Source: Escherichia coli (lineage in GTDB: Bacteria > Pseudomonadota > Gammaproteobacteria > Enterobacterales > Enterobacteriaceae). From it: a stretch of DNA of 31,720 nucleotides. Each line of letters opens with the position of its first letter. The first letter of the stretch is position 1. The notes under the pieces were generated by a model. The model made no database searches. It was not told where the DNA came from and was given only the letters and a program-made list of their open reading frames with translations. Positions 29,124 to 31,656 of the stretch are shown one piece after another. The position numbers and the translations under genes were made by a program. Where the stretch lies: NCBI RefSeq assembly GCF_003334385.1, contig NZ_QOWN01000053.1; one strand, 5' to 3'.

Positions 29124-29345
29124 ATGATTGCTCATCACTTCGGAACTGATGAAATACCACGTCAGTGCGTGACGCCTGGCGATTATGTTCTTCATGAAGG
29201 TCGGACATATATCGCTTCAGCAAACAATATTGAAAAGAGAAAACTCTATATTCGTAACTTCACAACAAAAACATGCATTACCGACTGCATGATTAAAGTT
29301 TTCATCGGGCGCGATGGCTTACCCGTAAAAGCAGCGTCGTTGTGA
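29124..29345 (+). CDS. Early-left small protein, function unknown (about 73 aa)
   Basis: [73 protein letters not shown]; GGAG 7 nt upstream of this ATG. Confidence 0.45.
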
Positions 29346-29428
29346 CGAGTAATAAAATACACCTTCCATATCTGTAACAGACAAGCCGAAATAAAACCGC
29401 ATTAATTATCAATCACGGAAAAATCAAA

Positions 29429-29815
29429 ATGAAAGAACTTGCGCAAAATGAAATATTTTCCGAAACCAGTCCTGATGCAATAAATGAACTCAAAGAAATT
29501 GCAGAACGCATCAGTAAAATATGCAAAGAATACAAAATCGACTTTGTATTTTCTTTTTCAGTGCTTACAGAAGTTGGAAATAACGAATATAAGGACAGTC
29601 GTTTTGTTTTATGTGGGTTAAATGGCAAAACACCAAGCCCATATATTCATGCTGCACGTGAAGTCGTCAGAAGCAACATTGGAGTACAACAAATCCATAC
29701 ACTGGCGCAGGCTCTTGAGTTTGCAAGAGAAAATTCCGAGTGCGACTGCCCTGAATGCCAGCACGAAAAGGGAAAAACAACTCACAAAACAGCAAACCAG
29801 GCAACCTTCCACTGA
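29429..29815 (+). CDS. Early-left protein with C-terminal CxCxxC cluster, function unknown (128 aa)
   Basis: MKELAQNEIFSETSPDAINELKEIAERISKICKEYK... ...ENSECDCPECQHEKGK. Confidence 0.5.
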   Translation: MKELAQNEIFSETSPDAINELKEIAERISKICKEYKIDFVFSFSVLTEVGNNEYKDSRFVLCGLNGKTPSPYIHAAREVVRSNIGVQQIHTLAQALEFARENSECDCPECQHEKGKTTHKTANQATFH

Positions 29816-29922
29816 AATAAAAATCCGGCAGCGCAGGCTACCGGATTTCTCCCTGCGTCACCGTATTCGGAGAAATCAGACAAAGGGCCGCTAATTCTAA
29901 TCCAGCCAGAGGTTTAAATACA

Positions 29923-31656
29923 ATGAGCGCTGATAAACAGACTTTTGCACTACACTGCGAAGCAAAAAACGATAAAGTCAGAAAACGCCTTGGCATCAAA
30001 GGCGGTTTTTTCTGGACCGAGGCCAGAAAACTTTCTGTCGCAGTTTCCCGCTGCATTGCAGCCATGGACGATGCAGGCTACGACGAGGATGATTTCAAAA
30101 AACCCGTTCGCGTAAATTTCCCCGTCGTGAATGACCTTCCACCGGAAGGCGTGTTTGATACTGAATTCTGCAACCGCTATGAAAAAGGCGGTAACGATGG
30201 CATCACCATGATGGCTATATCCTTCAATGACAACATCAACGGTGAAGATGCCACAACTGCTGGCGATGACAACGATGACCCGGACGGAACTATTCCGGAT
30301 GATGTGGAGAAAAGCGAATCCCCGGACAGCGACGATGACTGTTCTGAGTGTGAAATTCCCGTCGCCACTCTGAGCCTTACTCATCGCTTCCTTCACCTCT
30401 TCTTCTTCAGCAAGGATGAAGATGGAAAATACCGGCATCACGCCACACCAGAACAACGCAATAACGTGATCCGTATGGAGATGGACACAGAGGACAGTTA
30501 CCTTCAGAGCCTGCTTACTGCTGTGCGCGCCGCACATCATGAACTGGATAAACTGACGAACTATCACCTTAGTCGCCTGGCTGAATCTGTAGGGAAAGCA
30601 TTCCCCCACTCTGCAAATCATCGCATCAGCCCGGCTGAATTCGACAAGTTCATTTCCACCTGGATGAAAACTGACTACCTTGATCAGGGCCTGCTGACAA
30701 AAGAATGGCAGAACGGAAATTATGTTTCAGGCATTACCCGTACGCCTTCCGGTGCTAACGCTGGCGGCGGAAATATTACCGATCGTGGTGAAGGATTCAA
30801 ACATGATAAGACATCACTCGCACGAGATGTAGCCACCGGCGTTCTGGCCCGTTCAATGGATGTGGATATTTATAACCTGCACCCAGCACACGCAAAACGC
30901 GTTGAAGAAATCGTGTCAGAGAATAAGCCGCCCTTTTCTGTTTTTCGCGACAAATTTATCGCCATGCCCGGTGGGCTGGATTATTCCCGCGCCATTGTGG
31001 TGGCTTCCGTGAAAGAAGCACCAATCGGCATTGAGGCCATCCCGGCACGCGTGACTGAATATCTCAACAAAGTGTTGACCGAAACCGATCACGCTAACCC
31101 GGATCCGGAAATCGTGGAAATTGCCTGCGGTCGCTCATCAGCACCGATGCCGCAGCGCGGAACAGCAGAAGGAAAACATGGCGATGAAGAAAAGCAACAA
31201 GCATCGGACACAATGGCTAATGAACAGGCAGCGCCTGAATCAGTGGAAGAAATTCCAGTTAAACATAATGAGGACACGCAATCACTGGAAAATGTCTCAT
31301 CTGTAGAAACGAAATACCAGGAACTGAGGGAGGAACTCAATAAAGCCAGGGAAAACATCCCCCCAAAAAATCCAGTCGATGCCGACAAATTACTGGCTGC
31401 CTCGCGTGGAGAATTCGTTGAAGGCATCAGTAACCCTGCTGATCCGAAGTGGGTGAAGGGGATCCAGACTCGCGACACTGAGGACCAGAATCAGTCCAAA
31501 GTGGAACAAATTGCCCCAGAAGCGGGACAAAACAGCCCGGATACGCAACAAAACGGGTCAGAAGAGCAACAGCCAGGGCCAGTAGCGCAACCGGAGCTGG
31601 AAAAAAACTGCCGCGTCTGTGGTCAGACTGGCGGGGGTAACTGCCATAAGCGCTAA
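29923..31656 (+). CDS. Large acidic early-left protein, function unknown (577 aa), C-terminal CxxC...C-H cluster
   Basis: Long intact ORF with GAGG SD; poly-acidic tract ([30 protein letters not shown]) and C-terminal [15 protein letters not shown]. Confidence 0.6.

Follow-up and report, generated by a model that had tools for sequence, protein, structure and literature searches.

Positions 29124 to 31656 of a 31,720-nucleotide stretch of Escherichia coli DNA (contig NZ_QOWN01000053.1 of assembly GCF_003334385.1, the whole of which is called the window) form the distal stretch of the early-left (pL) operon in a lambdoid prophage that resembles the Shiga toxin (Stx) phages. The three open reading frames (ORFs) located here were read as kil, for a cell-division inhibitor, orf128, an orphan, and recE-N, a stand-alone gene for the N-terminal part of RecE (exonuclease VIII) which lacks the nuclease part and is broken by an insertion sequence (IS). 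Taken as a whole, this explanation is considered very probable. The locus is an ordinary prophage segment, already annotated in many genomes, with a strain-specific IS insertion.

All three ORFs listed in a preliminary description of the sequence were confirmed on the forward strand, at 29124–29345 (73 amino acids from the ATG), 29429–29815 (128 amino acids) and 29923–31656 (577 amino acids). Their placement in the left operon, proposed in the same description, was borne out by the gene order. A gene for a cI-like repressor (25982–26689) is followed by one for an N-like antiterminator (27397–27702), by small ORFs and then by the three genes. Because the ORFs lie downstream of the cI-like and N-like genes, and the Cro-like and CII-like genes on the minus strand are divergent from them, a lambdoid prophage's early-left operon is the correct assignment. 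Among phages, Escherichia phage PhiR5_2 matched the window best (98% identity across 75% of a query of 24.6 kb); the Stx phages 75/02, POCJ13 and PA28 matched more distantly.

The insertion sequence at the end of recE-N

On alignment of the DNA, the window departs from the intact alleles after ...GGGGGTAACTGC. At this junction (31644/31645) codon 574 (TGC) ends at 31644, and the following CAT-AAG-CGC-TAA, translated as His-Lys-Arg-stop, is the terminal inverted repeat CATAAGCGCTAACTTAAGGGTTG of an IS. The left end of this element, which is of the IS4 family and the IS421/IS186 type, occupies 31645–31720 on the forward strand, with the ATG of the transposase at 31700 as placed by register with locus L003. 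An 81-nt query was found at 8459 places in 2188 genomes at 98.8–100% identity (three copies in K-12 MG1655), and the matches are annotated as 'IS4-like element IS421 family transposase', of the IS186 group. Because codons 575–577 and the TAA stop come from the IS, both the length of 577 amino acids and the terminal CxxC...CxxH motif reported in the preliminary description are artefacts. The native motif is a zinc-ribbon-like CxxC-x7-CxxC. By alignment with the intact gene its first three cysteines (C563, C566 and C574; 31609–31644, forward strand) are present in the window copy, and the fourth was lost to the IS.

The target motif of IS186 has been defined in mutation-accumulation lines as 5'-GGGG(N6/N7)CCCC-3' (PMC5009759). 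The site in the window (31633–31645) reads GGGGG-TAACTG-C and is completed by CCT in the intact gene (GGGGGTAACTGCCCT), so that the intact allele, GGGGG TAACTG CCCT, agrees with the motif with one mismatch. The G-run and C-run of this target encode GGG(N/D)CP of the zinc-ribbon motif of RecE. In strain ET210 an IS of the same type interrupts the genuine Rac recE at the homologous codon; a duplication of 10 bp, GGATAACTGC, flanks it, and past the IS recE goes on with its nuclease half, followed by recT. The zinc-ribbon codons of RecE are a recurrent target, or hot spot, of IS186/IS421, with independent insertions at the same codon of two recE alleles of about 53% protein identity. The site is like the IS186 hot spots in fimA and menC (PMC5009759) in its GGGG-N6/7-CCCC-like sequence and its recurrent independent insertions, but unlike these it has CCCT with one mismatch as its 3' flank and lies inside a prophage recE gene. 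Positions 5990–6010 and 7330–7350 of locus L003 were listed together with window 31633–31645 as recurrent IS186/IS421 target.

The IS landed in the G-run/C-run target coding for CxxC-x7-CxxC, and recE-N is broken after codon 574; a simple insertion would place the repeat GGGTAACTGC at the far end of the IS. The truncated allele lacks 116 residues, among them the C-terminal tail and one half of the zinc ribbon; its function is probably impaired, and genes downstream of the IS, if there are any, probably suffer polar effects.

The exact junction of the window did not occur among 5426 complete genomes. That it was created during assembly is very improbable. The window stops inside the IS and the other records of the 577-aa product are short-read contigs ending at the same place, as an assembly artefact would have it, but the junction falls exactly at the terminal repeat of the IS and at a site fitting the IS186 target motif, and in an independent complete genome an IS of this type, with a target duplication, interrupts the homologous codon.

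Identity and possible role of recE-N

The native part of recE-N (codons 1–574; 29923–31644, forward strand) belongs to a protein of the RecE family that is 690 amino acids long when intact. With window positions 29000–31720 as megablast query, 81 E. coli genomes matched up to query position 2646 (window 31645), with the gene annotated as "RecE family exodeoxyribonuclease". Over residues 1–574 the ORF is identical at 571 of 574 residues to WP_096122400.1, one of these 690-aa proteins. Model NF007259 (exodeoxyribonuclease VIII) was covered by the ORF of the window over positions 1–540 of 877 (699 bits) and by the intact 690-aa relative over positions 1–598 (739 bits), both scores remaining below the cutoff of 1269 bits; phrog_607 was matched by the 577-aa ORF over positions 1–493 of 883. 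The only domain found by Pfam search was PF06630 (Exonuc_VIII) at residues 55–197 (E = 3e-11), which despite its name is an N-terminal segment, and PF12684, the C-terminal PD-(D/E)XK nuclease domain that corresponds to the crystallised RecE fragment, was not found. The precomputed domains of about 120 relatives also consisted of PF06630 alone, except in a 1049-aa protein that has PF12684 as well. Only the linker after the Cys motif could be aligned with Rac RecE's C-terminal half, and the last 58 residues of the 690-aa protein were confined to the recE'-gam arrangement. Among chains in the PDB there was no sequence match to recE-N at E ≤ 1. As judged from its domains, the intact 690-aa product is devoid of the RecE nuclease domain and is predicted not to be an exonuclease.

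The preliminary description had seen no resemblance of the three products to Kil or to other known proteins. This was mistaken for the 73-aa ORF, which falls in the KilR family, and for the 577-aa ORF, which has clear homology to a named recombination protein, RecE, a finding of the kind by which the description itself would be refuted. The 577-aa ORF therefore corresponds to the portion of RecE whose function is uncharacterised. No function has been assigned to the N-terminal domain of RecE, the nuclease domain alone is a genetic substitute for RecE, and linear-linear recombination is boosted by full-length RecE (PMC11611040). No paper was found in the literature that gives the RecE N-terminal region a function or discusses a nuclease-less form.

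Upon comparison with Rac RecE (866 amino acids; reference sequences from ET210 and Rac-SA53), identity amounted to about 53–56% over the N-terminal ~530 residues, and the conserved core, the motif at residues 481–520 and CxxC-x7-CxxC are common to both. Unlike Rac RecE, the recE-N lineage has a short unrelated tail instead of the PF12684 domain and is followed by gam-bet-exo, not by recT; the copy in the window is additionally shortened by the IS. The 690-aa proteins of E. coli prophages, PhiR5_2, 75/02 Stx and POCJ13 are 89–99% identical to the window over residues 1–574 and have the same kil and orf128 as flanking genes. These relatives are intact, whereas the window copy has lost the last 116 residues through the IS.

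The neighbours of the intact genes point to a link with recombination. In DETEC-S792 recE-N has 690 codons, with gam, bet, exo and int coming after it, and PhiR5_2 and 75/02 Stx have the same gene order; in loci L001, L002 and L012 the order reads kil-orf128-recE'-gam-bet-exo-int. The adjacency to recT that is seen for full-length RecE-like genes (five out of five: Rac-SA53, SPN3UB, Gifsy-2, a Klebsiella phage and mEp237) does not extend to recE-N, since gam-bet-exo comes next in the intact relatives and the window itself ends in the IS. In vB_EcoS-813R8 an 813-aa RecE-like gene (L005 3001–5442) is directly followed by xis and int, with neither recT nor bet, an arrangement which departs from the usual pairing of an exonuclease with an annealase.

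The nuclease-less form comprises dozens of clusters of 663–700 amino acids with 76–99% identity. Compared with the 75/02 allele, the ratio of nonsynonymous to synonymous substitution rates (dN/dS) of recE-N was 0.19 overall, 0.15 for residues 145–400 and 0.04 for residues 481–520. The nuclease-less recE-N is a maintained gene under purifying selection. Full-length RecE P0144 has about 100% identity with recE-N over residues 121–510 and diverges thereafter; therefore, the same N-core can have either a nuclease domain or a short tail attached to it. By tblastn, sub-segments of the N-region were found to be combined differently among phages.

Conservation within recE-N was assessed in an alignment of 14 sequences, down to 27% identity. 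Conserved blocks were found at residues 61–100, 181–200, 241–400 and 481–520, the third of which contains an invariant Gly-rich loop (residues 273–291, with G282, G283, T286, D287 and R288). The AlphaFold2 model has two confident regions, residues 8–100 and 145–400, with a predicted local distance difference test score (pLDDT) of 75–92, joined by disordered acidic linkers. The mostly helical core at residues ~145–400 (30355–31122, forward strand) stands out in the alignment, pLDDT and dN/dS. No structural neighbour of this core was found outside the RecE family, and neither of the folded domains matches solved structures. The E. coli RecE clade has the CxxC-x7-CxxC motif, which the homologues of Salmonella and Klebsiella and E. 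coli cluster P0146 lack.

The acidic tracts of recE-N (residues 101–140, 421–460, 521–560 and 581–640) are its least conserved and most gapped parts, with a pLDDT of 25–40 in the model, and are poorly conserved linkers predicted to be disordered. The preliminary description had suggested that the poly-acidic tract could be a DNA mimic. The tract itself exists, at residues ~101–145 (30223–30357, forward strand), with up to 13 Asp or Glu per 30 residues and a net charge of −12, and the native protein does have a four-Cys motif; on this reading the 577-aa protein would be a DNA-mimic anti-restriction factor combining such a tract with a C-terminal Cys/His metal site. However, identity in the tract is 0.15–0.21 among divergent homologues and its pLDDT is 26–40, so that it is predicted to be disordered and lacks the folded acidic surface of mimics of the Ocr/ArdA type. 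Furthermore, the His and the protein end are derived from the IS, many homologues lack the Cys motif, and no fold match in the PDB was obtained to any solved protein, DNA mimics included. This explanation of the 577-aa protein is therefore scarcely credible.

As a stand-alone, nuclease-less version of the RecE N-terminal region, directly upstream of gam-bet-exo in the intact relatives, recE-N would act as an accessory of the phage recombination module. This role is suggested because of the constant adjacency or fusion to recombination genes (recT or bet/exo) and because the sole reported phenotype of this region is that full-length RecE boosts linear-linear recombination; it is proposed tentatively, with slightly less than an even chance of being right.

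Alternatively, recE-N could be an independent host-takeover or anti-defence factor, acting not in recombination but, whether intact or truncated, through the 145–400 core and its invariant Gly-rich loop, its proximity to the recombination genes merely reflecting the early-left accessory region. Several observations favour this: the nuclease-less form is abundant, stable in length and under purifying selection, many polar and Gly residues are invariant in a core of no known fold, and the truncated allele retains both folded domains. The genetic substitution of RecE by its nuclease domain alone also implies that the N-region does something else (PMC11611040). Nevertheless, in most phages the N-region is fused to a recombination nuclease with recT next, and the only phenotype reported is recombination. 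PADLOC returned no match for any of the three products of the locus, which is weak evidence as its models describe defence and not anti-defence. On balance an independent factor of this kind is improbable, and no result obtained points to the anti-restriction or anti-defence activity for which the three genes had been put forward. In a broader version, judged unlikely if a little less so, the nuclease-less RecE-N is a separate unit with an undescribed fold that could be a host-factor-binding or anti-defence module and could be attached to, or placed beside, either type of recombination system by phages, with orf128 as a possible second accessory factor.

The genes kil and orf128

The 73-aa ORF (29124–29345, forward strand) was identified as kil, for a KilR-type cell-division inhibitor. 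Against NCBIfam NF008465 ('FtsZ inhibitor protein', cutoff 92 bits) it reached 151.8 bits over residues 1–71 of the 72 tested, and matched phrog_294, 'Kil protein for bacterial septation inhibition', with E = 9e-35; Pfam PF27398 (KilR) is on record for the same gene. Compared with the 75/02 Stx allele its dN/dS was 0.15. Going by its family matches, the product is KilR, of the Kil family of FtsZ inhibitors. KilR of Rac (strain ET210) has the same length of 73 amino acids and is 92% identical, and both genes lie upstream of recE in an early-left operon; the two differ in six substitutions, mostly near the C-terminus, and in their location, as the kil of the window is carried by a lambdoid Stx-like phage and not by Rac. 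For KilR of Rac, inhibition of division through FtsZ and of elongation through MreB is documented (PMC12482147), and upon induction the kil product would be expected to block division and elongation via FtsZ and MreB. The RefSeq product name for kil is 'cell division protein FtsZ', that is, the target rather than the inhibitor.

The description of the locus as three uncharacterised genes does not hold for kil, but it stands for the other two products in so far as neither has a demonstrated function and orf128 is an orphan. This gene (29429–29815, forward strand) matches phrog_2016, a family with no assigned function, from end to end (E = 2e-78). No match was found in NCBIfam, PADLOC, Pfam or the PDB sequences, where the best E-value was no lower than 0.38; a Pfam hit to DUF1281_C (E = 0.058) was insignificant. 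The homologues of orf128 form 26 clusters, exclusively from E. coli, with 59–99% identity. A profile search of 1.84 billion representatives yielded family members only, plus one spurious repeat protein: P0147 (E = 5e-4) was rejected as a relative, being a low-complexity repeat protein. RacC and YdaE, encoded by Rac genes in the same slot, were also rejected, as neither is similar.

The CDCPEC cluster that had been pointed out in the 128-aa product is real and occupies residues 105–110. Within the family C107 and C110 are invariant and C32 is nearly so, so that one chain offers too few ligands to make up a clear site of four. The AlphaFold2 model was unreliable (pLDDT of 65 for the best model, 40–45 for the other four) and no fold search was made from it. 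The dN/dS of orf128 was 0.25–0.40, which shows, as far as substitution patterns go, a real coding gene that is loosely to moderately constrained.

Between kil and recE, Rac has ydaE and racC, vB_EcoS-813R8 has ydfD and mEp237 has a 53-aa ORF, a varying content that is typical of an accessory-gene position; orf128 is an E. coli-restricted orphan occupying this variable slot. It may be a moron-type accessory gene unrelated to its neighbours, with a superinfection-exclusion, anti-defence or toxin-like role. This would suit the change of slot contents between phages, the narrow family confined to E. coli and the evidence for real coding given by dN/dS. Neither homology nor a reliable fold was found to go with it, and it is regarded as possible but doubtful.

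Several points weigh against the explanation of the locus given here. The exact 577-aa product is recorded only on three short contigs, which likewise end at the IS. As the window covers just the first 76 nt of the IS, the remainder of recE-N and gam-bet-exo would lie outside it, and a rearrangement in place of a simple insertion is conceivable. With both folded domains and the conserved 481–520 motif retained, the truncated product may still work. The putative accessory role of recE-N is based on synteny and on a single phenotype, seen with full-length RecE.

Prophage context and implications

Further features of the prophage were recorded in the remainder of the window. Between the repressor gene and kil lie two small genes of 69 amino acids each, belonging to families with no assigned function, phrog_2605 (28458–28667) and phrog_3946 (26842–27051); both are on the minus strand, opposing the orientation of the pL operon, and are annotated in relatives. 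A gene for a 248-aa 'DNA binding protein' (phrog_1305; 21129–21875) is on the plus strand, against the direction of the replication and nin-region genes around it, and an Ant-like anti-repressor is encoded at 19284–19955.

A Q-like antiterminator is encoded at 16912–17538 and an endolysin at 12007–12540. Neither tRNA genes nor an ORF of the size of stx were found between the two (window 12007–17538), where a 667-aa ORF (13488–15491; phrog_143, no function assigned) is located. The prophage looks like a stx-negative relative of the Stx phages.

On the minus strand of positions 1–1500 a collagen-like protein of Gly-X-Y repeats is encoded, probably a tail fibre, which runs off the start of the window. 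This repeat gene accounts for the 65% GC content of the first kilobase and for its strong AT skew. A 282-aa ORF in the same region (230–1078, minus strand) with a match to phrog_2481 was rejected as a gene, being an arginine-rich shadow frame of the Gly-X-Y repeat. A promoter scan gave promoter-like sites without enrichment, and the hits of a terminator scan were mostly weak hairpins within coding sequence; none of either were used.

The analysis corrects a false lead, as the terminal Cys/His cluster was made by an IS and two of the three genes taken as "unknown" fall into named, widely annotated families. Hundreds of proteins of about 690 amino acids carry the names "RecE family exodeoxyribonuclease" or "exodeoxyribonuclease VIII" without having a nuclease domain, for example the product of L001 5924–7996 with its ~120 relatives, and for these the name overstates. 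That the RecE zinc-ribbon codons are a recurrent IS186 target is a minor point that may be useful. The N-region of RecE, which has been without an assigned function for decades, occurs naturally as a gene of its own, under selection and next to the lambda Red genes, and this stand-alone recE-N offers a clean genetic handle on what the N-region of RecE does.

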